Shown here: positions 1 through 41,262 of the stretch, in pieces | Position numbering within the stretch: position 1 is the stretch's first letter | Layout of the letters: each line of letters starts with the position of its first letter | Assembly (NCBI GenBank): GCA_008080745.1 | Contig: SHMX01000005.1 | Location: 31,515 to 95,514, forward strand | Direction: 5' to 3' | Length of the DNA: 64,000 nucleotides | From: Candidatus Thorarchaeota archaeon | GTDB taxonomy: Archaea > Asgardarchaeota > Thorarchaeia > Thorarchaeales > Thorarchaeaceae | Position numbers and translations under genes: made by a program | The notes under the pieces: generated by a model | Database searches by the model: none | What the model saw: the letters and a program-made list of their open reading frames with translations, nothing else | What the model was told of the DNA's origin: nothing

Positions 1-460
1 CATCTTTTCTACCTAGATAGTATCCGGCCAGATATTGGATTGGTATATGTTTCTCAATAGCTTCTTCTTTGGTCATGGGACAACATTCGACTCCCGGACT
101 CTCATAGCTCACTTCTACTATCTCGTGACCATCACAAAAATCCAGACGGGAAAGGTGTTTCGTCCTTCCGTCAATTCTGTCCTTCCCACTTATACTATGA
201 ACAGCACTTGCATCATAATGGAATGGATCTCCTCTCTGCTTGTGAATGCTACTCACTAGATATACCGTTTTGTCCTCCATTGACTCCACTTTGTTACTTC
301 CATCATCAACGAATTTTTTGTCTGTACTCTCGCCAACTACATAACGAATATGATAGTGTTTTGCATCTACCAGCTTTTTACTATCTCCTTCTTTCACAGT
401 TATCATGGTATTATCCCACAATTCTATTGGTTCGAAAGGATTGTTTTCTAATTCACTCAT
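1..460 (-). CDS. Hypothetical protein, partial: start codon at 460-458, 3' end runs off the window start
   Basis: I translated the minus strand of 1..460 by hand. ATG at 460 is followed by about 153 stop-free codons (MSELENNPFEPIELWDNTMITVKEGDSKK...). It is absent from the ORF track, presumably because no stop falls inside the window. It overlaps the short plus-strand ORFs 35..259 and 208..492, which therefore look spurious. Confidence 0.4.
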   Translation of the reverse strand, partial: MSELENNPFEPIELWDNTMITVKEGDSKKLVDAKHYHIRYVVGESTDKKFVDDGSNKVESMEDKTVYLVSSIHKQRGDPFHYDASAVHSISGKDRIDGRTKHLSRLDFCDGHEIVEVSYESPGVECCPMTKEEAIEKHIPIQYLAGYYLGRKD

Positions 461-626
461 CACTGACACCTGATTGTTTTAACTATTGTTAATTATGTTT
501 AGTATGCTTATGAAACTTTCGACTAATGATTTTCAAGAAACAGATTGAACGAAATATGGTCTGTCTATCTTGGAATGTAATAATATCTGATATAAGTCAC
601 CAATCACAGATACGGTACAAATAACA

Positions 627-1349
627 ATGGTATTTCAGGTGGTATATGAAATGGCTTTCGGTTTGCTTCATTATCTATTCCTAGTTTCGGGTGTACTAAT
701 AATAGGATGTATTCTGTTTCTCTCTAGACGCTATAGTAATCAGAAAAACACCTTGACCTTGGTATTCACGCTATTTTTGATTTCCTATGCAATAATTGCG
801 TTTGCGTATGGATTTAGAGGATTATTCGATCCTCAAACTACACCAGAGATTATCCTCTGGATTTTGACAAATTTGATGTATCCCATTATGGTTGTTCCTT
901 TGGCTGTCTTTCTCGCCTATCCTTATCTTCAAGAAAAGATTGGAACCCCTACTGGACTCATAACCCGTATAATTATGATTTTTGCCTTTCTAGTAGTTGT
1001 TTTCAATTGGGGAGTGATTTTCACCTCTGATATCGAGTATACCTACATCGATGTCTTTGGTCTTACTCATTATTCTCTGGTTTCAGATTTTGTTCCCTAT
1101 GCATATTACTTGACCCTCTTTCTAGATATAGTTGTAGCGACTTTTTCAGCAATCTTTTTGGCTATATCATTCAGGAGGGAAACAGATTCCGTATACAAAC
1201 AGAAGGCATTATTCCTCCTTGTCGGTTGGTTGTTAATATCTTATGGACAATTGCTTCTACTGAGTGCAACTCTTGCAATTATTCATCCTCTGACTTCAAT
1301 GAGTGGTGTTATTCTCCTTGTACTTGGAGTTGTACGTAGCGGTTCCTAA
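627..1349 (+). CDS. Integral membrane protein with about 7 predicted TM helices, unknown function
   Basis: 240 aa dominated by long hydrophobic stretches (LLHYLFLVSGVLIIGCILFL, IMIFAFLVVVFNWGVIF). No recognisable catalytic motif. Confidence 0.5.
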   Translation: MVFQVVYEMAFGLLHYLFLVSGVLIIGCILFLSRRYSNQKNTLTLVFTLFLISYAIIAFAYGFRGLFDPQTTPEIILWILTNLMYPIMVVPLAVFLAYPYLQEKIGTPTGLITRIIMIFAFLVVVFNWGVIFTSDIEYTYIDVFGLTHYSLVSDFVPYAYYLTLFLDIVVATFSAIFLAISFRRETDSVYKQKALFLLVGWLLISYGQLLLLSATLAIIHPLTSMSGVILLVLGVVRSGS

Positions 1350-1371
1350 AACGTAATAATATGATTGTACC

Positions 1372-1893
1372 ATGGATGTCAAAGTGAGAACCAATATGAC
1401 CTCCAAGATTGTAAAGATGGCATTGGTGGGTGCTGGTGGTGCTGGTAAAACTACCATTGCCTCTCGTCTAATCACAGGTGAATTCATTGAAACCCTAATG
1501 ACAATTGGGATTAACATTGAAACTTGGACATTAACAGATGAGGAGAGCGATTCTGATGTAAAAGTCGCGCTTTTTGATCTTGGAGGACAACAACAATTTC
1601 GCTTCTTTCAGAAGAGCCTGCTTGCGGGTACCCATGCAGTCATTCTGGTTGTTGATATGACTCGATTAAAGACACTCTTTGAGCTGGATGATTGGATTAG
1701 ACTGATTCGACATGTTCCTACGGACATGTGGTTACTCGTTGGAAACAAATGTGATGACAATCCTATGATGACCGAGGAGGACATCAGAGAAAAAGCTGTG
1801 GAACTTGGAGTTCCATATGTCATCCTCAGTGCAAAGACTGGTGAAGGTTTTCAAAAACTGACAGATATCATTATAGACATGATGCGAAAGTAA
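1372..1893 (+). CDS. Ras-superfamily small GTPase (Rab/Ras/Arf-like)
   Basis: G1 P-loop GAGGAGKTT, G3/switch II DLGGQ, G4 NKCD and G5 SAK are present in canonical order and spacing. The real start may be one of the internal ATGs (1396 or 1417). Confidence 0.85.
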   Translation: MDVKVRTNMTSKIVKMALVGAGGAGKTTIASRLITGEFIETLMTIGINIETWTLTDEESDSDVKVALFDLGGQQQFRFFQKSLLAGTHAVILVVDMTRLKTLFELDDWIRLIRHVPTDMWLLVGNKCDDNPMMTEEDIREKAVELGVPYVILSAKTGEGFQKLTDIIIDMMRK

Positions 1894-1979
1894 CTCTGTT
1901 TATTCTCCTCAATCAACCTTTTTATTGGCATAATGAATTATGATACTTAACCAATATTCAGCTCTCCAGAGGTATTTGT

Positions 1980-2822
1980 GTGTCTAAGTCCGAAAAAGAA
2001 GTGTATGTGTTTTGTGAACAGTGTAAAAAGAATGTTTTACTGAGAGTACCTCTTGATTCTGATGCGGCAACTCGTGGCGGTCTCATGTCGGTGGTATCAG
2101 TTCATGGAGATCCACCCCATGCTCTAATGGCATATCTTGACGCACAATTTAGGGTACGTGGTGTTGAATATCCGGCAGCAGCCCAGACTGGCGATACTGG
2201 TAAAATTGAATCTGTTCCAGAAAGCAAGGTAGAACAATTGGAAGAGAAAGTAGAGCTCGGCATTCCTGCCCTTCTTGGTATGCTTCACTCAAAACAAAAG
2301 GATGCTATCAAAGCACTGTCCATTATTATGGTCAACCTATTGACTAAGAAACGCATTTTTCTAATTCATGATGAGGAACAAATCGGCTCTTCGGTCATTT
2401 CAGCTCTTCATGATATTGTATCCTCTCAGGAAGAATTGATTACCCTGATCAGTCATGAGATTCTATCTCAGAGCGATTTGAATCCTTTCTGTGTTTATGA
2501 TTTACAACAGACCAAATTTATTCACAAAGGGCCTAAGATTGATTCTAAGTATTTTGAGCGTACCCTGGACGATATAACAAAACATGAGAATCCATATTTT
2601 CGATTAAAGAATGAGATGAGCAAAATTGTTTACGCTTTTGAAAAATTACAAGAGATTCTTTCTTCTTTGTCCTCTCCTATTCTCGATACAAAATTAGCAA
2701 TGGATGCATCTATTGATTATGAGCTAATGCCCTTCCTTCTTGAATTGGCCGAGTCGGAGGGCATTGTTGTCCGGTCACTGGTTCAGAAAGATGGCTTGGG
2801 TAGAGCATTACGCAGCATCTAA
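1980..2822 (+). CDS. GTPase-linked partner protein with N-terminal CxxC/His-rich segment; paralog of 8514..9428
   Basis: 280 aa, probably a GTG start at 1980. N-terminus EVYVFCEQCKKNVLLRVPLD...SVVSVHGDPPH parallels QVSTFQCAVCNERVSFNPRD...YRVSHMVGSERH in the 8514..9428 protein. Both genes sit immediately downstream of a small GTPase on the same strand. Confidence 0.55.
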   Translation: MSKSEKEVYVFCEQCKKNVLLRVPLDSDAATRGGLMSVVSVHGDPPHALMAYLDAQFRVRGVEYPAAAQTGDTGKIESVPESKVEQLEEKVELGIPALLGMLHSKQKDAIKALSIIMVNLLTKKRIFLIHDEEQIGSSVISALHDIVSSQEELITLISHEILSQSDLNPFCVYDLQQTKFIHKGPKIDSKYFERTLDDITKHENPYFRLKNEMSKIVYAFEKLQEILSSLSSPILDTKLAMDASIDYELMPFLLELAESEGIVVRSLVQKDGLGRALRSI

Positions 2823-2843
2823 GCAATCTTAGAAATATTAACT

Positions 2844-3461
2844 ATGGTTAACCTTAATAAGGTGGAAACCCAACCTATATTGATGGAAATGTTAGAGTAT
2901 GTTATTATTGTACTTGCAGTCGCTCTTTTTGGATTACAACACAGTGGTTTATCAGCACTCTCTGTGAAGACACGCATTATTGATCGTTGGGGAAAGACTG
3001 GTTATTCAAGACTCTACACCATTTCTGCGGGTATCACACTTCTCCTAGCATTTCTTTCGATGCAATTTTGGGACTGGTTCTATTTTCTATACAGTCCTGT
3101 TAATATTTTCACCTTTATCATCGGTTTAGTCTTAATTGTAATTGGAATGATAATTGCGTATATTGCCACAGGGGTGATATCAGTGAGCACCGTTGCTGAT
3201 ATGAGAACAGATCGAAAGGCAGAACTAGTTACTGATGGTATTTACTCGCGAATTCGTCATCCCTTATATCTAGCTACAATTCTCTTATTCTTGGGTCTCG
3301 CACTGTTGTACTTTCCTTACTTGGAGGTGTTAGTATTCTCATTTGCTATGATTGGATACACGTTGATTGGGGCATATCTTGAAGAGAGAAAATTGGTGAT
3401 TCATTATGGACAGGATTATGAACAATACCGAAAACAAGCTGGTTTCATCTTGCCAAAATGA
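2844..3461 (+). CDS. Isoprenylcysteine carboxyl methyltransferase (ICMT)/NnrU-family membrane methyltransferase
   Basis: Multi-TM protein whose C-terminal region carries the ICMT-family signature: GIYSRIRHPLYLATILLFLG, then EERKLVIHYGQDYEQYRKQAGFILP (RHPxY ... EE..L...G..Y..Y). It lies 22 nt downstream of the partner gene on the same strand. Confidence 0.7.
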   Translation: MVNLNKVETQPILMEMLEYVIIVLAVALFGLQHSGLSALSVKTRIIDRWGKTGYSRLYTISAGITLLLAFLSMQFWDWFYFLYSPVNIFTFIIGLVLIVIGMIIAYIATGVISVSTVADMRTDRKAELVTDGIYSRIRHPLYLATILLFLGLALLYFPYLEVLVFSFAMIGYTLIGAYLEERKLVIHYGQDYEQYRKQAGFILPK

Positions 3462-3467
3462 GATGGT

Positions 3468-3926
3468 CTATCCGAAGTGGTTTCCCTTTGAATCAAGCAT
3501 CTTCTGAATCTTTGATAGATGCCGTCCTCTTTTTACAGCTTTGGGGCTTATTTCATGCACTTTGCCATGCTCAACTACGTAATGTTCAACCTCCAATTCC
3601 GGGATGAAATGACGTTTTACATCCTCTGTGATAAAATGTAATTGGACACAATGAGGGCTGCCATCCACCGAAAGGACCACTATTCGTTTGAGTTGAGAAT
3701 AACGCACAAAAGAGGCAATCTTGAAACCTGCTTGATTAACGTGAGATTCTTCCAAGCAGATATGAAGAACTGCATACCCTTCATCTCTCTGGGCGAATTC
3801 TTCAACTATCTCAGGATATCTCTCCATCATACAGGTTCCTATTAGAAGTAGTTGCCCCTTCTCTCGTATGTATTGAGCGCCTACGTTAGTACTCATTAAT
3901 GGTTGCGATTCATCCATGAAGACCAC
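3468..3926 (-). CDS. Hypothetical protein
   Basis: 152-aa ORF immediately downstream of 3927..4886 on the same strand, with contiguous coordinates. No recognisable motif. Confidence 0.4.
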   Translation of the reverse strand: MVFMDESQPLMSTNVGAQYIREKGQLLLIGTCMMERYPEIVEEFAQRDEGYAVLHICLEESHVNQAGFKIASFVRYSQLKRIVVLSVDGSPHCVQLHFITEDVKRHFIPELEVEHYVVEHGKVHEISPKAVKRGRHLSKIQKMLDSKGNHFG

Positions 3927-4886
3927 CTACCATTTTCTTCTGATTGGTGGTTCTTTTTCTTCTTCTCTTGGTATCCATTGGTCTACCAAGGGTGCAGCAA
4001 CTCTACCTATGATATCTCCTTCAAATACATAGTTCATACGTGCTAAGGATACAATAGCTCCATCATAGGGGCTTTTTACCTTGCCTCTGCCTTGTATCTC
4101 CCCAATGACATCGTTATTTCGAATGACCTCTCCTAGATTCACCTTGGGGACAAAAAATCCTTCATTATCTGCATTGATGTGTTGAAGTCTACCGGTGAAG
4201 ATGCTTGAGGTTTCTATCTTCTCTCCTGGTATCATATCTTTAATTCTCATCAGATTGACAATGGCCTCTCTTACCTCCACTGCAGCCTGACTGTCAATCT
4301 CGTTCTTTGAACCTCTCATTTCGATGGAAACTGTAGGTATACCCTCATGAGCTGCCTCTGTTGTAAGAGATCCCCTAACGCCTGAACTCTCAATTACCAA
4401 CGGAAGGGATATTTGTGAGGCTAAGTTTCTAACATGGATATATTCTCGGTGCATTGCTATGACATGGCTAACGCATGCCTGTAATCCCGTCTTTAGATGA
4501 ATTACAAAGTCGGCCTGGACTGCTCTTCTCCAAATTTCCCATGAAATCCGTTCTGTCACTGTTCCATGTTCATTTCCTGGGAATACTGAATCCATGTCTT
4601 TCGAATCCAGTGGTGATACCTTTGTGCCTAGTCGAAAGGCTAATGGATTACCAACGGGTAGGACCGTTACAGAGCCATCGATTCGGTCGAGTTTCTCAAG
4701 ATGCTGCATTATCAGAAAACTGGCATACATTCCAGTTGCTGAGAGACCGTCCATTGCAGCAAGGATGAGTACATTTGGTCTTTCTCTGCCAAATGTGTAA
4801 AATCCTAAGGTCGTACCTGTCTTGGGGTCGATATCGATTGCATCAACGGAGGCTTTTACCATATTCATCCCTTCTGCTGACTTCAT
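3927..4886 (-). CDS. AstE/AspA (succinylglutamate desuccinylase/aspartoacylase)-like deacylase family protein, possibly non-canonical
   Basis: 319 aa. LILAAMDGLSATG, LPVGNPLAF and DFVIHLKTG resemble the AstE/AspA-family core motifs (GGxHGNE, NP.A, DLHT), but the expected His/Glu zinc ligands in the first motif appear substituted. Confidence 0.45.
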   Translation of the reverse strand: MKSAEGMNMVKASVDAIDIDPKTGTTLGFYTFGRERPNVLILAAMDGLSATGMYASFLIMQHLEKLDRIDGSVTVLPVGNPLAFRLGTKVSPLDSKDMDSVFPGNEHGTVTERISWEIWRRAVQADFVIHLKTGLQACVSHVIAMHREYIHVRNLASQISLPLVIESSGVRGSLTTEAAHEGIPTVSIEMRGSKNEIDSQAAVEVREAIVNLMRIKDMIPGEKIETSSIFTGRLQHINADNEGFFVPKVNLGEVIRNNDVIGEIQGRGKVKSPYDGAIVSLARMNYVFEGDIIGRVAAPLVDQWIPREEEKEPPIRRKW

Positions 4887-4958
4887 TTCAATCTTGTACT
4901 TTTATCTAATAAGAAGCAGTGTATCACTTGGTTGGAAACTAGTGAATCTCTCGATTCT

Positions 4959-5684
4959 CTAGAAATTAAAGAGAAAGACATCTGTACATCGCTCATCAGA
5001 GGAAAACGTGTCATGTCTACTAATTGCATAAGGGCTCCCTACCGATTTATGCTCAAACTCAAATAGGTCAGTATGTCCACAGCGTTCCGGGTTACCAATC
5101 CATATGAGGGGTATTCCGGATTCAACTAAATTGGCGCTTGCCATTGATAGGTATGGTTCCCAACTAACGATTGTCAGTGAGGGTTCGAATGTTTGAATAG
5201 TTTCTATAGCTGTCATTTTTTGTACCCATTTAGGATATCCAATATTATATCGCCCCGTCTTAGCATCTGTAGCTATAATTTTTTGATCAATCTCCCGTTT
5301 CAGGAATTCTGACAATCTGCCATCTCCACTCATGACTTCAGCTATAATGATATTTTGTTTCTGGGGAGTAATGCTCTCTCGTACGATATCTACCAGTTCG
5401 TGTATAAACTCTTGACTATATATTTGAAATATCCACCTTCCTCCAGCATTGGATCCATTACAGTATTCTTTTACGGAAAACTCGTTCTCAATGACTCCGA
5501 AGAGCTCGATAACTTTTGAGAACGGAAGTAGTTCCTCATGGACATCTATGAAGACATCTTCTCGCTCATACATCCATTTGGTAGACATACGCGGCGTTCT
5601 ATCTACTCTCCTTTTTTCACTATCCATTCCGTCATAATCCACAAAGGTGATTACAAACATTATTCGATTTCGAAACTTTCCCAT
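4959..5684 (-). CDS. Hypothetical protein (possible Rossmann-like fold)
   Basis: 241-aa ORF. The IIIAEVMSGDGRLSEFL segment weakly resembles methyltransferase motif I. No firm assignment. Confidence 0.4.
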   Translation of the reverse strand: MGKFRNRIMFVITFVDYDGMDSEKRRVDRTPRMSTKWMYEREDVFIDVHEELLPFSKVIELFGVIENEFSVKEYCNGSNAGGRWIFQIYSQEFIHELVDIVRESITPQKQNIIIAEVMSGDGRLSEFLKREIDQKIIATDAKTGRYNIGYPKWVQKMTAIETIQTFEPSLTIVSWEPYLSMASANLVESGIPLIWIGNPERCGHTDLFEFEHKSVGSPYAISRHDTFSSDERCTDVFLFNF

Positions 5685-5755
5685 GCTTGGTCATACTAAG
5701 TAGGCATGATACAAAAGCAAAAAGACCTATATACTTACTTTACTAATCTATCATA

Positions 5756-6268
5756 GTGGTCCTAATGGCAATCACACGAAGAATACTACTGGTATCAGTA
5801 CTTGTCATGTGTCTGACCTTCGCTTTACCCACGACGGTTCAGGGATGTGATGCTCAGTGCAAATATGATGATTTCAGTGTGGTCGTTGATTATGCCAATT
5901 ATCTGGATCTTGACGGGGATTCTGCGGAAGACGACGTGTTGACCATTGCGCGGGTTTATCGAGATACTCAATATTCATCTGTACTGAAAACAAAGATATT
6001 CTCCTTTGTACAGGTTCCATCAGGAAGGATGTTTCACAGCATCGTGAATGTGAACGGTGATTATTCAAATCTTGTGATCACAATCGAGTGGTTTAACACA
6101 GCAAAAGAAGCTGGTTGGTACGACCTTGATATCTTTGTGATAGTTATCACAACAGATGGGGCTCAGTTCCTTTATACCAGTTTATCCTTTGATCCGCCTG
6201 AAGGCGGCGATCCTGGCCCTCCGTTATATCCGGATGTGGAAATCAACGAAACTGTAAGTCTGTCATAA
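5756..6268 (+). CDS. Small secreted protein with N-terminal signal peptide
   Basis: N-terminus RRILLVSVLVMCLTFALPTTVQG has a charged n-region, a hydrophobic core and an AxG/Q cleavage-like site. The protein is acidic and Asp-rich. 170 aa. Confidence 0.5.
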   Translation: MVLMAITRRILLVSVLVMCLTFALPTTVQGCDAQCKYDDFSVVVDYANYLDLDGDSAEDDVLTIARVYRDTQYSSVLKTKIFSFVQVPSGRMFHSIVNVNGDYSNLVITIEWFNTAKEAGWYDLDIFVIVITTDGAQFLYTSLSFDPPEGGDPGPPLYPDVEINETVSLS

Positions 6269-6294
6269 GATGTGCCTGTGGAAACCCACTCTGG

Positions 6295-7455
6295 GTGAGA
6301 GAGAGTGTGTGTGTAGCGATGACCGGAAAACGACTCAAGGATTATCTGTCCCTTTTAATCGCATTACAGAATAATCCATTTGGGACTACAGATGAACTTT
6401 CCGATGAATCCGATATATCCAAACCCACAGTAATAAAGCGTCTTCGTGTGCTACAGGGTGCAGAACCTATTGTTCCAGAAACCAGTCCGAAAAAATACTT
6501 TACAGTCGAGCCAATTCTGGATTATAGTACATTGGGCCTTGAACCAGTTGATATTCTTGCAGAAACTAAGACTCTTGATGGTGTAAAGGCTTTAGAGCAA
6601 ATTGCACTTGCACATCCCTATACTGTTTACCGCAGTAGGTGTTTTGGTTCTCCCAATGGGATACTACTGCAATTTCGAACCCCGCTTGATACTAGAAAGA
6701 AAATCGAAGAATTGTTCGAATCGTTATGGGATCGAGATATTTTACTTAACTATCAGATACTCCCAACCAATAATTCAATTGTTCGTTATACATCTATGCA
6801 GCTAAAGGGGTGGGATGCCAACGATGCAAGATGGGAATTTGATTGGAAGACATGGTTCAATTCACCGACCAAGAAAACCCTTGAACCGCTTCCCGAATCT
6901 GAGCCAGGGAAATCTTTGGAATGGATGACGAAAAATGATCTTCATATCATTCGAGAGCTGATGATAGACACGAGAAGAAAAAATACTGAAATTATAGATG
7001 AATTAGAATCGAGAGGTATTAGCTTTACGCCTCAGACTTTTGGTCGTCATCTTCAGATAATCAAAGATGAGTGTATTCGAGGCTATCGTGTGGTGATTGC
7101 ACCCGAGCCTTTCGATGTGCTCAATAACATACTAGTTATAGGAAAATCCGAACAATCTCATCTTGAAAAACTGGTTGCTAAGACTCAATTTCGGGACTTT
7201 CCTTTTGAGTCTACGATACGAATTGCTGATGAGAACCTATTCTGGTTTGTCCGGTTAAATCAACATCATATCTCACCATTTTTGAATGGCCTATTCGATA
7301 CTCTCAAAGAAACAAAGATTTGCTTTTTGGACTATGAACACTCATACCTCTACAATATCTGGCCTGATGCTTTTGATGAAGATAAAAAAGAGTGGCGTGC
7401 TGATGACGCCTTTTTACTTGACAGAGTTCTCTCAAGTTTGAAGAATCTTCACTAA
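6295..7455 (+). CDS. Putative winged-helix DNA-binding protein with a large C-terminal domain of unknown function
   Basis: N-terminal segment LKDYLSLLIALQNNPFGTTDELSDESDISKPTVIKRLRVL resembles a wHTH (ArsR/TrmB-like). The remaining ~300 aa were not recognised. Confidence 0.45.
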   Translation: MRESVCVAMTGKRLKDYLSLLIALQNNPFGTTDELSDESDISKPTVIKRLRVLQGAEPIVPETSPKKYFTVEPILDYSTLGLEPVDILAETKTLDGVKALEQIALAHPYTVYRSRCFGSPNGILLQFRTPLDTRKKIEELFESLWDRDILLNYQILPTNNSIVRYTSMQLKGWDANDARWEFDWKTWFNSPTKKTLEPLPESEPGKSLEWMTKNDLHIIRELMIDTRRKNTEIIDELESRGISFTPQTFGRHLQIIKDECIRGYRVVIAPEPFDVLNNILVIGKSEQSHLEKLVAKTQFRDFPFESTIRIADENLFWFVRLNQHHISPFLNGLFDTLKETKICFLDYEHSYLYNIWPDAFDEDKKEWRADDAFLLDRVLSSLKNLH

Positions 7456-8504
7456 CTTGGACCTTTGGTCACTTTGAAGACAGATATGGGAGTAGCAGTT
7501 TCAAAAGCAATAGCTCCTGATTCCATCGCCCACTCTTCCATGTCGTCCTTGGAAAAGAATCCATGGACACCCTCTACGACTTTGAAATGTGCCTCATTGT
7601 ACATGTTTGTATCTGGGTAAAAGTTCTGTGTACCAAATAGGAAACCGCCGGGTTTCAGTACTCGCATCATCTCCGTAATCGCAAGTTTCGGCTCAGTCCA
7701 ATGCAATACTTGCGAGGCAAATACGATATCAAAGGATTCATCCTCATAGGGAATCCGTTCAGCATATCCTGGACGAAATTCTACCGGGAACTCATTCACG
7801 GTATCCTTGATACTTAGATCATGTCCATTATACTCTGAAACCATTTGAGGGAATTCTTCGCTTGCTATACGGAGAAGTTTCTCATTTGGGTCAATACCTA
7901 CTATCTGCATGGGGGACCCAGGGAAGAAAAAGTCGTTCTCATAGTAGTATGACCAAATTGCGGCTGTCCCCCGACCGTTTCCGGAACCAACATCTAAGAA
8001 TCTCACTGGTTCCTTTAGGGCGTCGGAAAAGGCAAAAGCGGCACGTCTGATTTGTTCATAGAGTTTGTTCGATAAAGCGTCATCCCAGTTGAATAAATTC
8101 AACCCTCCAGTAAACTGTAAGCATCGTCCTCTTAATCTATCTGGAATTGCTCTTGCATGGTCAACCCACAATTCTCTCATAGCGTCATCAAAACAACTGG
8201 GACATGTCCAATCAAATTCAATGGGCCCCTCCATGAAAAGTTGACCATCATTTTCTTGAATAACCTCGTCTTCAATCAATATACCAATTAGGTATTCTAA
8301 GAAATCTATCTCAGTATATCTGAACTCTGCAGCAATCTGCATGAGGGTTCGTGGAGACTGTAAATAATCGAACCAACCCTCATTTCTTAGCACTCCAAGA
8401 ATATTGCCTCTGAAGAAGCTGTCAATATCCTTTCGGAGCTTTGATACATTTAATCCAAGTTTCATCAATTCTTTCCATGCTCTCATCTTTCTTATCATTG
8501 TCAA
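7452..8504 (-). CDS. Class I SAM-dependent methyltransferase (O-methyltransferase-like, with N-terminal dimerisation/wHTH-like domain)
   Basis: Motif I FLDVGSGNGRGT, an acidic post-I residue (IVGIDPNE) and the motif VLKPGGFLFG. It lies 10 nt downstream of the GTPase-partner gene 8514..9428 on the same strand. Confidence 0.75.
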   Translation of the reverse strand: MTMIRKMRAWKELMKLGLNVSKLRKDIDSFFRGNILGVLRNEGWFDYLQSPRTLMQIAAEFRYTEIDFLEYLIGILIEDEVIQENDGQLFMEGPIEFDWTCPSCFDDAMRELWVDHARAIPDRLRGRCLQFTGGLNLFNWDDALSNKLYEQIRRAAFAFSDALKEPVRFLDVGSGNGRGTAAIWSYYYENDFFFPGSPMQIVGIDPNEKLLRIASEEFPQMVSEYNGHDLSIKDTVNEFPVEFRPGYAERIPYEDESFDIVFASQVLHWTEPKLAITEMMRVLKPGGFLFGTQNFYPDTNMYNEAHFKVVEGVHGFFSKDDMEEWAMESGAIAFETATPISVFKVTKGPS

Positions 8505-8513
8505 TCACTCCTG

Positions 8514-9428
8514 TTATCCAAGAAGTCCTCTCCTCTCAACGTGTTCCAGCATATCGAACACTTTCTGTATTCTCCCAATCTGCCCTTGTTCTAAGAGGTC
8601 GATTACACTCGCTTTTCCACTGAGAAGTGGGACCAGAATCTCTTCTGCAAAATCGAATTTTCGTTCTACACGATCAACTATGGAAGGTATCCGGGGAATG
8701 TACTGGAAGTCGATTTTTGAAAAAAGGCGGTCATCCCCAACTAGCTTCAAAAGAACTGACGAATCAATCTTAGGGTTGACCGCAATAGCGTGCAGACCAA
8801 GGACAAGGAGTCTTTTGTCGGGGATGGCATCTCGATGTGGTTCTCTTATTGTTTCCTTAAGCAAAGTACTCAGAGAACCAAAAGCTGCGGGGCCTTTGAG
8901 TGCACCACAGGCTATTCTTGAGCCCTTTGTCCACACACGTAGATCCTGGTCAGCGATGGTGAAATTCAATTCATCAGGGAGACTCTCATAGACCCTCTCT
9001 GCCTCCTCAACTCGCTGTGCCAGAAGTCTTGCAAGCTCAAGTATTCTTACCTCGGAACTTGTTACACCTTCTAATACCCATGAGTCGTCTCTATCCATGA
9101 TAAAGACACAATCGAAAAATGGATGTGATTCCAACGTAGCAGGCTTTTGAGATACTAACCAGAGTTGTTGCTCTGCTTTTTCTCCTTTAACCTGTTCAAC
9201 AAAAGCGTCTTTATGTCCGCGAAAGAGATCCATATGATCTACGATTATTGTGTTCACGTGACGCTCTGAACCAACCATATGCGAAACTCTGTAGGTGGTC
9301 AGTTGCATACCAAAGAATTTCTCATGTGGCGTTTTGGATTCGAAGGTGGTGGGATCTCTAGGATTGAAACTCACCCTTTCATTACACACAGCACATTGGA
9401 ATGTGGATACCTGTTTTGTTTGACTCAT
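8514..9428 (-). CDS. GTPase-linked partner protein with N-terminal CxxC/His-rich segment; paralog of 1980..2822
   Basis: 304 aa. The N-terminus FQCAVCNERVSF...RVSHMVGSERHVNTIIVDHMD parallels 1980..2822. It lies 11 nt downstream of the small GTPase 9439..10092 on the same strand. Confidence 0.55.
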   Translation of the reverse strand: MSQTKQVSTFQCAVCNERVSFNPRDPTTFESKTPHEKFFGMQLTTYRVSHMVGSERHVNTIIVDHMDLFRGHKDAFVEQVKGEKAEQQLWLVSQKPATLESHPFFDCVFIMDRDDSWVLEGVTSSEVRILELARLLAQRVEEAERVYESLPDELNFTIADQDLRVWTKGSRIACGALKGPAAFGSLSTLLKETIREPHRDAIPDKRLLVLGLHAIAVNPKIDSSVLLKLVGDDRLFSKIDFQYIPRIPSIVDRVERKFDFAEEILVPLLSGKASVIDLLEQGQIGRIQKVFDMLEHVERRGLLG

Positions 9429-9438
9429 TCCTTATCCC

Positions 9439-10092
9439 TCACCTGTTTGTGAATAGGTTGTTTACCAGCCACTGTCTTACCTCATCTAGTCCTGAGCCAG
9501 TTAAGCAGCTAGTTTCAAAGTATGATACAATCTGTGGATTGCTCTGCAATACAGCTTCAATCAGACCCTTGTCCATCGAACAATTCAAGTCACACTTGTT
9601 TCTAATCAGAACAAAATCGGGTGTATCGAATCGAGTTTGGGACACATAGTATCCGGTCAATAGATCCACCCATTCTGTTAGATCAATCAGAGATTGAATA
9701 TTATCACTGGCGAAAATAAGCAGGATTACATCGACTCCGCCAAGAGCAGTTCGACTGATATCCTTGAGTGCATGAATTGGCGAATTGAGTTGACCTGCGA
9801 TGTCGACCATTTGACACAGCCCTTCAATATCCTCGTCAACAAGGTCTGCTGCAGGAATGACTTCCAAATCTACAAAGAGCGTCCGGTGGTATTCCGCTTC
9901 GTCCTTAAGAAGCTCCTTTAAGCTCTTTCTCTCTCTCAACACGGTCAGCAGACTAGACTTGCCTACGGCCCCAGACCCTGCCATCAGAATCTTTCGTATT
10001 CCTGAATGGAGTTTTATTCTTTCAATTAGGCTTCGTGATGTCTCAGGTTCGGTTTCTTTGGTCTTCAATTCGCTCGTACTCATTGCTATCAC
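9439..10092 (-). CDS. Ras-superfamily small GTPase with ~40-aa N-terminal extension
   Basis: G1 GSGAVGKSS, G3 DIAGQ, G4 NKCD and G5 ETSCLTG. There is no C-terminal CaaX. Confidence 0.8.
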   Translation of the reverse strand: MIAMSTSELKTKETEPETSRSLIERIKLHSGIRKILMAGSGAVGKSSLLTVLRERKSLKELLKDEAEYHRTLFVDLEVIPAADLVDEDIEGLCQMVDIAGQLNSPIHALKDISRTALGGVDVILLIFASDNIQSLIDLTEWVDLLTGYYVSQTRFDTPDFVLIRNKCDLNCSMDKGLIEAVLQSNPQIVSYFETSCLTGSGLDEVRQWLVNNLFTNR

Positions 10093-10198: not shown

Positions 10199-12112
10199 TT
10201 GAAAGTGAGAGGAACTCGATTTCTTTCCCTAATCCTAGTTTTTGCGTTCCTAGCCCCCGCGTTCTTCCCCGCTGGGCTTGCTAGCTACGAGTGTTACGTG
10301 TTTTATGATGCGAATGCAGTTTCTGGTGATTCTATTAATGTCGGATTGGATATGATTCAGACTATCTGCGATGACGATGTTACTCTTCGACTTGTTTCTG
10401 TGGAGTCAAAACGAGATTTGCGAGTGAGTCTAACAGAACGATCTTCTGCAATCTTCCTTTTCCATGGTAATGAGGATGGGTTGAGTCTGACCGATTCTGA
10501 GGATGATTCTCCTCTTATGACATGGTCTGAGCTTGCTGGTTATATCGACAAAACAAGTTTTTCTGAATATATGCTATTGAGCTGTGATTCCTCCGAGGTG
10601 AATGAGCTCACCATGAAAGAGCGTGTCCTCACCTTTACTGGTGAAATTGATTCGAAAGTTGCTACTGCTGTAGCTATATCTAAGATTGGTGAAATTCTTC
10701 GTCACTACAGCTTCCGTGGCTCATATTCTGTTTTCAACAACCTTATTGAAACAATTCAAAATGATGATACCTTCATTCAGCGGTTATTCAATCCCATAGA
10801 TACTCTTGGTGACTATGGAAAAGAAACCTCTGTTCAGCATGGACTACTGGTTGCCCGTCTGAAGGAATTTCGTAAAGAAGTTCATGGCATGGCACAGTTA
10901 GTTATCACGAAGAAATCCTATCAACATCAAGTTGAATTAGCGTTTATCACCATCATGGATCTAGTGACGGGAGATTTGTATAGCCTGATGAAGGATGCAG
11001 GTGAACATTGTGCAGCGTTGTTAGATGACTTGAATAATGTTGCATCAGATATTGTCTCAGGTAGCGTCAGTGTATCCACCATCATGAATGCTGTGGATGC
11101 AGTTCTTGATATCTATGATTTAGCCTCTATCGTGCTTGAGATGGTCACTAATCAAAAAGTTCGATATATTCTGGAATGGATTGATCTTGGAATGTTCATT
11201 GCAGATATCTGCTATGCTTATGTTTCTGTTAAAGCACAAATGGAGGACTCAGACTATGGGGGTCGGAACATAGAATCTGATAGTTTGGCAATGATTATGG
11301 ATGATGAGGCGTATCGTGATATTGATACTGTTCTTTATCTCCCTGATAGAACCAGCGTGGTTAATGCAATTGACAATCTCATTACCGCTCTGGAAGGAAC
11401 TTTCAATTACAATACCATTCGTAACAAGGCTGATCGTCTTTCCGATATATGTGACGATGCTTTGACTATCGCTCCTCACATTGGTGGTGATACAGAGGAT
11501 TATGTCATGTGTTTATTGGAATCCGTAAAAGATGCGGCCGATAGTATCTATGATAGTGGTGCATACCATCTTGACCGCTATGCTAGGGATAACTTCTACT
11601 ACGAAATGGATTGGTCTGTTAACGCGGATTGGTGGGCAGGAAAACTTCACATTAGTTACAGTTTCACCAATCCCTCATGTAATCAAATTCCTATCTATAG
11701 AATTGTGACCGATTTTGAAGAAACTAAGACTGGCAACTCAAGGTATCATTCCAAATACTTTAGTTATTACCTTCTTCCAGGTTCATCTTATGATGATAGC
11801 TTTGATTTAAGCTATGATCGCTGGAAGAGCTGGAACGTTGTATTTACTTGGTCACTTACTTGGAAGTATAATAGCGATCTCTATGGGACCTACAAGGCAG
11901 GGGATGCAGATGGTGACGGTCTAAAAGACTGGCAAGAATTAGAATCAACATTTGGCTACCGTACTTGTCCTACAAAGCGGGATACAGATGGTGATGGATG
12001 GCCAGACAAATACGAGATTGACAATGGCTATAATCCTCTGAACTCTGGAAGTCATCCTCCTGATGGTGGTGGTGGAGGCGGTGGATTACCTGGCCCTATC
12101 ATAGTACGCTAA
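10199..12112 (+). CDS. Secreted protein with C-terminal thrombospondin-type-3-like Ca-binding repeats and a poly-Gly tail
   Basis: TTG/GTG start followed by a signal peptide (KVRGTRFLSLILVFAFLAPAFFPAGLAS). The C-terminus contains DADGDGLKDWQELE and DTDGDGWPDKYEID (DxDxDG) repeats and ends GGGGGGGLPGPIIVR. Confidence 0.65.
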   Translation: MKVRGTRFLSLILVFAFLAPAFFPAGLASYECYVFYDANAVSGDSINVGLDMIQTICDDDVTLRLVSVESKRDLRVSLTERSSAIFLFHGNEDGLSLTDSEDDSPLMTWSELAGYIDKTSFSEYMLLSCDSSEVNELTMKERVLTFTGEIDSKVATAVAISKIGEILRHYSFRGSYSVFNNLIETIQNDDTFIQRLFNPIDTLGDYGKETSVQHGLLVARLKEFRKEVHGMAQLVITKKSYQHQVELAFITIMDLVTGDLYSLMKDAGEHCAALLDDLNNVASDIVSGSVSVSTIMNAVDAVLDIYDLASIVLEMVTNQKVRYILEWIDLGMFIADICYAYVSVKAQMEDSDYGGRNIESDSLAMIMDDEAYRDIDTVLYLPDRTSVVNAIDNLITALEGTFNYNTIRNKADRLSDICDDALTIAPHIGGDTEDYVMCLLESVKDAADSIYDSGAYHLDRYARDNFYYEMDWSVNADWWAGKLHISYSFTNPSCNQIPIYRIVTDFEETKTGNSRYHSKYFSYYLLPGSSYDDSFDLSYDRWKSWNVVFTWSLTWKYNSDLYGTYKAGDADGDGLKDWQELESTFGYRTCPTKRDTDGDGWPDKYEIDNGYNPLNSGSHPPDGGGGGGGLPGPIIVR

Positions 12113-40167: not shown

Positions 40168-41262
40168 TCACTCATAACCTAATGCAGCAAAGGGGCAGAC
40201 TGATATACACATACCGCAGGCCTGACAATCTTCAGAATTGATCTGCAATATTCCGTCTTCTTTGTTAGCTGTTATTGCGTCATATACACACGATTTCACA
40301 CAGAGACCACAGACAGTACATTTCTCGTGGTCAATACTAGGCGGGGGAGTAAGCTCTGTCAATTGTTTCAGAGCAATCCCTCTGATTTCATTAATTGACC
40401 CGTAACCATGGGTGTCCAACCATTTCTTGGTTTCATCTACTATCTTTCCATAGATAGTATGGCCCTCAAGAATTGCAGCTGTACAGACTTGAACCGCAGA
40501 TGCTCCTGCCATTACAAACTCTATGACATCCTCTCCTGATGTGACCCCTCCAACTCCCATGATGGGTAAGTCTACTGCTTGTGCAATATCTGCTACACAT
40601 CTAAGAGCGATTGGCTTAAGTGCCGGACCGCTCAACCATCCCTGGCCTCCCTCTCCACCTAGCATAGGTCTTGCTGTTTCTATATCGATTCTAAGACAGG
40701 GGCCGTATGTGTTAATAGCAACAATTCCATCCACATGGGGCTCAAGTGATTTTGCTACTTTTGCAACATCTACTTTTGGACTAAGCTTGGCAAAAATAGG
40801 AATATTTACAGAATCTCGTAATGCTTTGGCAATTTCTACATGTCCTCCTACATAGTGTGTACTGAACTCTATTGCCTCTACACCTGCCCTTTCCATCTCT
40901 GGTGCAAGTGAAGAAACCTCTTCTGGTGTATATCCAACACTTGCTACTAACGTTAATCCCGAACTCTTTGCAATTGCATATTCTTTCTCAAACCATTGTT
41001 CAGGTGGCAATTCACTCCATAATTCGGTGTTTAGAATTCCTCTTCTGGAGGATACTCTTCCTCTTCCAATTGCAGCCATATTTGGTCTTGGAATCTGTGC
41101 CCCTTTGACACTGATAGTCTTTGCAACTAGACCACCAACTCCTCCTGTTGCCGCAGTGAGAAGTGTCATTCCATCGCGTGATGTGGGACCAGCTGCTGTG
41201 AGAATTGGATTTCGAAATTTCAATCCTGCAAATTCAACCTGAAGATCTGCCATACATACCAT
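40168..41262 (-). CDS. Dihydroorotate dehydrogenase-family flavoprotein with C-terminal 2x[4Fe-4S] domain (PreA/DPD-subunit-like)
   Basis: DHOD class-1-like TIM-barrel N-terminus (LKFRNPILTAAGPTSRDG...) with two C-terminal ferredoxin motifs (CTVCGLCVKSC, CQACGMCISVCP). Confidence 0.75.
   Translation of the reverse strand: MVCMADLQVEFAGLKFRNPILTAAGPTSRDGMTLLTAATGGVGGLVAKTISVKGAQIPRPNMAAIGRGRVSSRRGILNTELWSELPPEQWFEKEYAIAKSSGLTLVASVGYTPEEVSSLAPEMERAGVEAIEFSTHYVGGHVEIAKALRDSVNIPIFAKLSPKVDVAKVAKSLEPHVDGIVAINTYGPCLRIDIETARPMLGGEGGQGWLSGPALKPIALRCVADIAQAVDLPIMGVGGVTSGEDVIEFVMAGASAVQVCTAAILEGHTIYGKIVDETKKWLDTHGYGSINEIRGIALKQLTELTPPPSIDHEKCTVCGLCVKSCVYDAITANKEDGILQINSEDCQACGMCISVCPFAALGYE

Follow-up and report, generated by a model that had tools for sequence, protein, structure and literature searches.

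A conserved membrane methyltransferase gene of Thorarchaeota beside an apparently inserted small GTPase cassette, and a nearby trio of GTPase, partner and class I methyltransferase genes

We describe here the setting and the family placement of a gene for an integral-membrane methyltransferase, dependent on S-adenosylmethionine (SAM), that lies in a 64,000-nt stretch of contig SHMX01000005.1 from a Candidatus Thorarchaeota archaeon (this whole stretch is referred to as the window). The gene follows those for a Ras-like small GTPase (GTPase1) and a partner protein (partner1) on the same strand, and the first-pass annotation of the window read it as an ICMT-family gene whose linkage to the GTPase was either coincidental or a sign of carboxyl methylation tied to GTPase signalling. 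The explanation that we prefer, with a probability of roughly 0.78, is that the methyltransferase is a stand-alone, conserved membrane enzyme of Thorarchaeota, that its adjacency to GTPase1 is a by-product of the insertion of a gene cassette, and that its substrate is likely a lipid or small molecule. A link between an ICMT and an Asgard GTPase would have implied that part of eukaryotic CaaX processing predates eukaryotes, and for this locus that suggestion is removed. For methylation tied to GTPase signalling, the gene set worth following is not the ICMT-like gene but a trio about 4 kb away, made up of a second GTPase (GTPase2), its partner (partner2) and a class I SAM methyltransferase.

Synteny and operators of the methyltransferase locus

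When genomes were scanned, one for each species, 70 methyltransferase loci of the Thorarchaeota type were found, from 65 of which start-to-start distances were taken; they include the window's own locus (L001) and that of its closest relative, isolate RBin_111 (L003). The divergent upstream neighbour of the methyltransferase, present in 65 loci, is a gene for a protein of 190 residues (hyp190) with no relative in Pfam or the PDB; it is the ancestral neighbour. The start codons of the two genes are 77–174 nt apart in 63 of the 65 loci, and 2414 and 2428 nt apart only in L001 and L003. In as many as 63 of the 65 the methyltransferase stands alone, with no linkage to a GTPase. GTPase1, partner1 and a gene for a 240-residue membrane protein were found upstream of it only in L001 and L003 (by tblastn, and by phmmer at E<=1 with all upstream open reading frames (ORFs) of 56 loci), and none of the three lies within 5–6 kb upstream in any of the 54 other loci whose upstream DNA extends for 2.5 kb or more. 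On the other side of the methyltransferase, almost every one of roughly 68 Thorarchaeota loci keeps three convergent neighbours (Table 1). The comparison of these loci indicates that a 2.4-kb cassette was inserted between hyp190 and the methyltransferase in one lineage only. Because the adjacency occurs in just two of the 65 loci, and because the cassette is found elsewhere without a methyltransferase, the linkage to GTPase1 is a coincidental by-product of the insertion and is no evidence of a functional link; of the two possibilities raised in the first-pass annotation it is coincidence that is borne out for this gene, and the expectation of a conserved methyltransferase-GTPase adjacency fails.

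The intergenic DNA retains a record of the ancestral arrangement. The region between hyp190 and the methyltransferase is strongly conserved (ATTAACTATTGTTAAATACACAATAGTTAACTTATAAGG, from the aligned upstream regions of 53 loci), and it comprises two TTAAC-N4-GTTAA palindromes 4–7 nt apart followed by a TATA-like box about 40–45 nt before the start codon. Exact palindromes occur at two places only in the window, and since one copy stays by hyp190 and the other, together with a TATA-like box, by the methyltransferase, the cassette sits between two copies of this candidate operator, and the methyltransferase has kept the proximal copy and the TATA-like box. The palindrome, as TTAAC-N4-GTTA(A), is seen in 46 of 67 Thorarchaeota loci. 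In 964 kb of these loci the shorter form TTAAC-N4-GTTA was found 55 times, with 54 of the occurrences no more than 200 nt upstream of the methyltransferase and the remaining one being the split copy of L003. This distribution looks like that of a dedicated operator for a putative regulator, and an operator of such high specificity would mark a small regulon consisting of hyp190 and the methyltransferase. We infer promoter function at the methyltransferase from the conservation and the position of these elements.

We propose that transcription of the methyltransferase would normally start at a promoter of its own, within the compact divergent region that it shares with hyp190, and that the palindromic operator would control this region. 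A mobile three-gene unit then entered between the two operator copies in the common ancestor of the window genome and one close relative. The only direct repeats that flank the cassette are the 14-nt operator copies, and neither a target-site duplication nor terminal repeats were seen as a footprint of insertion.

Table 1. Features of the methyltransferase locus, the cassette and the trio, in window coordinates
Feature	Position	Strand	Description	Basis or remark
hyp190, 5' part	1..460, cut by window start (L001 7045–7617 = window -112..460)	-	conserved 190-aa gene	
Distal operator copy, putative	479..492		TTAACTATTGTTAA, beside hyp190	exact match; repeat family D8
Membrane protein	627–1349	+	multi-pass, 240 aa; cassette gene 1	ORF
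GTPase1	1372–1893	+	Rab-like, 173 aa, ends DMMRK; cassette gene 2	Pfam, PDB
partner1	1980–2822	+	280 aa, ends ALRSI, N-terminal Zn-type motif C-x2-C...H-x4-H; cassette gene 3	
Proximal operator copy, putative	2838..2851		TTAACTATGGTTAA, directly upstream of methyltransferase, contains ATG 2844	exact match
Methyltransferase	ORF 2844–3461; orthologue-supported start 2889 (2889–3461)	+	integral-membrane, SAM-dependent; ICMT/PEMT/NnrU superfamily	
TATA-box-like element	2852..2862	+	CCTTAATAAGG, about 30 nt before ATG 2889	CTTATAAGG in orthologous promoters
Convergent neighbour	3468–3926	-	AF_0155-family	Pfam, synteny
Convergent neighbour	3927–4886	-	AstE/AspA-like deacylase	Pfam, synteny
Convergent neighbour	4959–5684	-	241-aa protein	Pfam, synteny
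Class I SAM methyltransferase	7452–8504	-	350 aa; trio gene 3	9 nt after partner2
partner2	8514–9428	-	304 aa, ends RGLLG; trio gene 2	10 nt after GTPase2
GTPase2	9439–10092	-	217 aa, ends LFTNR; trio gene 1	Pfam Ras 1.9e-9

The choice of start codon bears on how closely the methyltransferase follows the cassette. The ORF that opens at ATG 2844, the start used in the first-pass annotation, encodes 205 residues, and this ATG falls within the conserved palindrome; the start that the orthologues have in common, without exception, is the counterpart of M16, which is ATG 2889 (MLEY...). Since the orthologues agree in this, the real spacer between the partner1 stop codon and the methyltransferase reads as 66 nt, and not the 21 nt that separate the stop from ATG 2844. 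The closeness of the genes on one strand that had been reported therefore stands, with the figure of 22 nt given for it corrected.

It has to be considered whether the insertion created a new operon, by which the methyltransferase came under transcription from the cassette and its product methylates GTPase1, partner1 or something that they control. The shared strand, the 66-nt spacer and the lack of a T-run terminator are what such an operon would have, and two genomes retain the arrangement although their methyltransferases share only about 70% identity. However, these are only two of 65 loci, the gene has retained its own operator copy and TATA-like box, the cassette exists elsewhere without it, and there is no cysteine at the C-termini of the cassette proteins to be prenylated. 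The alignment also gives no special divergence of the methyltransferase of this lineage from its orthologues, which are 60–72% identical across Thorarchaeota, and we consider a functional operon of this kind very improbable.

Upstream of the window, L001 carries (at 244–4580) a block with selenocysteine machinery (aSelB, SepSecS and a KTI12/PSTK-like kinase) and two TFIIB genes, and this block is syntenic with the methyltransferase in most Thorarchaeota loci.

Family placement and substrate of the methyltransferase

The ORFs and the RHPxY and EE..L.HYG.DYEQY motifs on which the first-pass annotation relied exist as described, as do both GTPase-partner pairs. In the methyltransferase the motifs fall at residues 138–142 (RHPLY) and 180–195 (EERKLVIHYGQDYEQY), and R138-H-P-L-Y142, E180-E181 and Y188-G189..Y192..Y195 are invariant in 22 of 22 orthologues and align to Ma-ICMT. 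The Pfam matches all fall on the same C-terminal stretch, with PEMT at 41.1 bits, NnrU at 36.5, DUF1295 at 26.5, ICMT at 23.7 and ERG4/ERG24 at 19.6, and that to NnrU spans residues 22–195. The first two exceed their gathering scores (25 and 24.7 respectively) and are matched by all 22 orthologues, although both are broad, domain-level families that set no substrate. The ICMT match (PF04140) is confined to residues 120–182 and lies below its gathering score of 24; among the orthologues it reaches E<1e-3 in 20 of the 22, always more weakly than PEMT or NnrU. Because the same stretch also matches PEMT, NnrU, DUF1295 and ERG4/ERG24, what was taken for an ICMT signature reads as the cofactor-binding motif of the whole superfamily, and it does not discriminate ICMT. 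Membership of the superfamily is thus upheld, and assignment to ICMT proper is not.

The NCBIfam models give a similar ordering. The best match is MddA (NF045656), at 55.2 bits against a cut-off of 270 and nearly full length (residues 19–204 on profile positions 49–238 of 238), followed by isopcys_mtase (NF040696, 43.7 against 160) and LmtA (TIGR04571, about 40 against 325); no curated equivalog cut-off is reached. The scoring of PEMT, NnrU and MddA over ICMT is the same in all 22 aligned orthologues. The N-terminal helices of the Thorarchaeota methyltransferases carry a Q-H-S-G...K...DRWGK motif of the NnrU/MddA type, in a region covered by the NnrU and MddA models only. When 1.84 billion representative proteins were searched by profile, the Thorarchaeota enzymes came out as a discrete subfamily, with scores dropping from 273 bits within it to about 108 bits outside, and beyond it lies a cloud of proteins of the same size (about 195 residues), 862 of them at E<=1e-10 and 14,046 at E<=1e-3. 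The 30 nearest of these relatives share an N-terminal H-S...K...R motif with the Thorarchaeota proteins, and again favour PEMT (all 30), NnrU (27) and MddA (best E-value 2e-23) over ICMT (19, best E-value 5e-7). These profiles argue that the methyltransferase is a new subfamily of a known superfamily and no demonstrable ICMT. The first-pass annotation had named two outcomes that would tell against its own suggestion, and both are what we find: the profiles, as judged by scores, side with PEMT, NnrU and MddA, and the adjacency to GTPases is not conserved.

A bona fide ICMT whose substrates are prenylated proteins from other parts of the genome, and that has nothing to do with the adjoining GTPases, would agree with several of the observations. 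The closest solved structures are Ma-ICMT (4A2N) and Tribolium ICMT (5V7P/5VG9), the isopcys_mtase model covers residues 54–205, and JGI annotates many of the orthologues as Ste14-like. The enzyme has in common with the ICMTs the C-terminal cofactor module (RHPxY, EE, YG..Y), and with Ma-ICMT a similar size and number of helices; the family profile can be aligned to Ma-ICMT over residues 100–192 (E=1e-9), and a Foldseek match to ICMT has a root-mean-square deviation of 2.3 Å over 84 residues. However, the alignment to Ma-ICMT is limited to the C-terminal half, the N-terminal half is unmatched by ICMT models and has the NnrU/MddA type of motif, the PF04140 score is below its cut-off and below those of PEMT and NnrU, and isopcys_mtase gives 44 bits where 160 are needed. 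For an AlphaFold (AF2) model of the methyltransferase, with a predicted local distance difference test (pLDDT) score of 75, the Foldseek matches are weak and lie among ICMTs and steroid 5-alpha reductases, with one sterol reductase; they name the superfamily fold and nothing finer.

The proteins encoded nearby do not offer CaaX substrates either. Neither GTPase1 and GTPase2 nor their partners have a cysteine near the C-terminus, and the observation that none of the four ends in a Cys-containing CaaX, CC or CXC motif is confirmed. A CxxX C-terminus is present in one of the 65 ORFs of at least 100 residues in the window (40523–40855, ending CPPT), and the window holds no credible CaaX ORF. The Rab-like small GTPases of archaea generally are without prenylatable cysteines (PMC4915359). 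With these points added to the profile scores, we regard a true ICMT as unlikely.

The least probable of the alternatives is that the protein is no methyltransferase, but an NnrU/Z-ISO-like or reductase-like membrane protein in which the shared fold serves other chemistry. The NnrU match, above its cut-off over residues 22–195, could be read in this way, as could the weak matches to ERG4/ERG24 and to steroid reductases by sequence and by fold. However, the RHPxY...EE...YG..Y residues, which align to the C-terminal segment of Ma-ICMT that binds SAM or S-adenosylhomocysteine, are invariant among the 22 orthologues, and all three of the NCBIfam matches are to methyltransferases.

As to the acceptor, analogy makes a lipid of the membrane, or else some small compound that is lipophilic or volatile, the most likely one, and not a GTPase. 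We infer both methyltransferase activity and this class of substrate, and favour a lipid or small molecule because the superfamily includes MddA, LmtA and PEMT. MddA, a member of the group with 4–6 transmembrane segments, methylates H2S and methanethiol (PMC11445057), so that non-protein substrates are established for the superfamily. The profiles of MddA, NnrU (PF07298) and PEMT (PF04191) are the best-scoring ones, and those of MddA and NnrU align almost from end to end, with the N-terminal H-S...K motif included; the likeness to MddA is nevertheless limited in that 55 bits fall far short of its cut-off of 270, and in that the Thorarchaeota group is discrete and known from sequences alone. 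LmtA, the lipid A 1-phosphate O-methyltransferase, is matched by 22 of 22 orthologues (best E 4e-16) and provides a precedent for a lipid-headgroup acceptor, although here too the score of about 40 bits is well below the 325 required. Archaea are not known to have lipid A. Among the 10 bacterial relatives of the methyltransferase that the genome scan also recovered (28–37% identity, mostly Bacteroidota) no conserved neighbour gene that would hint at a substrate was found.

Several points weigh against the explanation that we prefer. There is no oligo-T terminator between the partner1 stop codon and the methyltransferase, and read-through co-transcription from partner1 may therefore occur in the window lineage. 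The best matches among solved structures are ICMTs, and no PEMT, MddA or NnrU-type methyltransferase came up among the solved structures for comparison. The family placement is by profile scores and not by a tree with characterised references. In addition, a charged loop, D-M-R-T-D-R (residues 119–124), is invariant in the orthologues, and with this loop an acceptor of acidic nature, for example a carboxylate or a phosphate, would be fitting as well.

The GTPase cassette at other genomic sites

GTPase1 has the features expected of a canonical Ras-superfamily small GTPase, to judge from its matches to Pfam Ras (7e-23), Roc and Arf, its best PDB matches (Sec4, Rab1 and Rab8) and its G motifs GAGGAGKT, DLGGQ, NKCD and SAK. 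The two proteins encoded on either side of it are less familiar: the 240-residue membrane protein of the window has no Pfam match, and partner1 has no Pfam or PDB sequence match and belongs to a family found in Thorarchaeota only, with 10 clusters in 5.8 billion proteins. The cassette recurs in the same order in L082/L083 (4639–6843), where the membrane protein, GTPase and partner are 49%, 59% and 49% identical to those of the window, and where the membrane homologue has a weak HisKA_7TM match. The context there is unrelated, with genes for a flavin adenine dinucleotide (FAD) oxidoreductase, a ferredoxin and a radical-SAM protein following, and there is no ICMT-like gene. Further homologues of partner1 stand after a frameshifted GTPase (one), near a divergently oriented GTPase (one) or without any GTPase, and an ICMT-like methyltransferase is present in none of the seven other partner1 contexts. 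The seven-transmembrane (7TM)-GTPase-partner cassette is found at different genomic sites in different Thorarchaeota, which points to a receptor-GTPase module whose genes travel together, and the window would provide a clean example of it.

Two of the other partner1 loci deserve mention. In L084 (5405–5892) the GTPase that precedes the partner1 homologue is split in two frames, so that it is frameshifted or a pseudogene, unless the assembly is at fault. In L087/L088 (6001–7696) a distant partner1 homologue (36% identity) has no adjacent GTPase and is followed by a 257-residue class I methyltransferase, a second and weaker association of a partner with a methyltransferase.

A C-x2-C...H...H...RG pattern is common to partner1 and partner2, but homology of the two is not supported. 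BLASTP found nothing, hhalign over the full length gave a probability of 1.7% (E=0.03), and domain-wise hhalign matched the CxxC segment only.

The trio of GTPase2, partner2 and class I methyltransferase

The suggestion of GTPase-linked methylation in Asgard archaea, which is not sustained for the ICMT-like gene, gains support from the second GTPase-partner pair of the window, which is followed by the class I SAM methyltransferase. Counting the instances in which the DNA reaches far enough, the order of the trio is kept in 12 of 12 (L001, L003, L024, L089, L090 with two tandem copies, and L091–L096), and it persists down to identities of 33–36% for partner2 and 34–42% for the methyltransferase, in unrelated contexts and often with overlapping genes. 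A homologue of GTPase2 always precedes partner2. The family of the trio is restricted to Thorarchaeota (22 clusters); in the metagenome scan for partner2 a single sequence found no relative, and alignment A2 gave eight loci. In one protein, P0151 (478 residues), a Ras-family GTPase domain is naturally fused to a homologue of partner2, and the fusion supports a direct interaction between GTPase and partner2. In L090 the two tandem trios (3383–8806) have a further class I methyltransferase just upstream on the opposite strand.

The GTPase2 G motifs are GSGAVGKS, DIAGQ and NKCD. The class I methyltransferase combines a Methyltransf_11 domain (residues 170–290) with a unique N-terminal region of about 150 residues, and its NCBIfam matches are generic UbiE/BioC-like ones only. 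The AF2 model of partner2 (pLDDT 87) has an N-terminal beta domain, a middle domain and a helical C-terminal domain. The first of these is a zinc-type domain of the C2H2 kind, with C12, C15, H50 and H57 invariant, and residues 105–193 of the model follow the order beta-beta-alpha-beta-beta-beta-alpha. The top Foldseek matches of partner2 are to Fuzzy-Inturned, the Sec22b longin domain, MK-D1 Roadblock2, MglB, Mon1-Ccz1 and Ragulator, with probabilities of about 1, yet the E-values are weak (4e-3 to 6e-2) and the TM-scores on the target are 0.4–0.6; no sequence-level match to longin or roadblock regulators was found. The matches are consistently to longin or roadblock proteins, which the predicted middle domain may resemble, and the position of partner2 directly after a Ras-like GTPase, with one case of fusion, is reminiscent of MglA-MglB, Rag-Ragulator, Mon1-Ccz1 and Fuzzy-Inturned. 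The trio differs from these systems in the additional C2H2-type beta domain and helical C-terminal domain of partner2, and in its obligatory class I SAM methyltransferase.

We tentatively raise the possibility, to which we give well below even odds, that the trio is a previously undescribed signalling module in which a Ras-like switch and its regulator control the methyltransferase or are methylated by it; the methyltransferase may also simply be co-expressed with the pair. If the module is real, Asgard archaea would have a methylation step coupled to a GTPase and independent of both ICMT and prenylation. Tran et al. report that the genes for Asgard GTPases as a rule do not share an operon with those for their regulators (PMC10933270), and because the two are so seldom encoded side by side the trio would be a rare assignment of GTPase, regulator and effector, and one that is directly testable. 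A literature search found nothing on operons of Asgard small GTPases with methyltransferases or on Asgard GTPases with ICMT; the word methyltransferase is absent from the small-GTPase papers of Wuichet 2014 and Tran 2024 and from the Asgard Arf preprint, and for Asgard longin domains together with methyltransferases and small GTPases only an ESCRT preprint was found, without mention of a methyltransferase.

No Rfam family and no tRNA was found in the window. On the plus strand at 5756–7455, convergent to the trio methyltransferase, are genes for a 386-residue protein with two weak winged-helix/AsnC-type helix-turn-helix matches and for a protein of 170 residues; this pair is kept in the four closest trios (those of the window, L003, L024 and L089) and could include a regulator of the trio. 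Divergent from GTPase2, also on the plus strand (10199–12112), is a gene whose 637-residue product is secreted or anchored and has, towards its C-terminus, a TSP3-type repeat of the bacterial kind as well as a tail rich in Gly.

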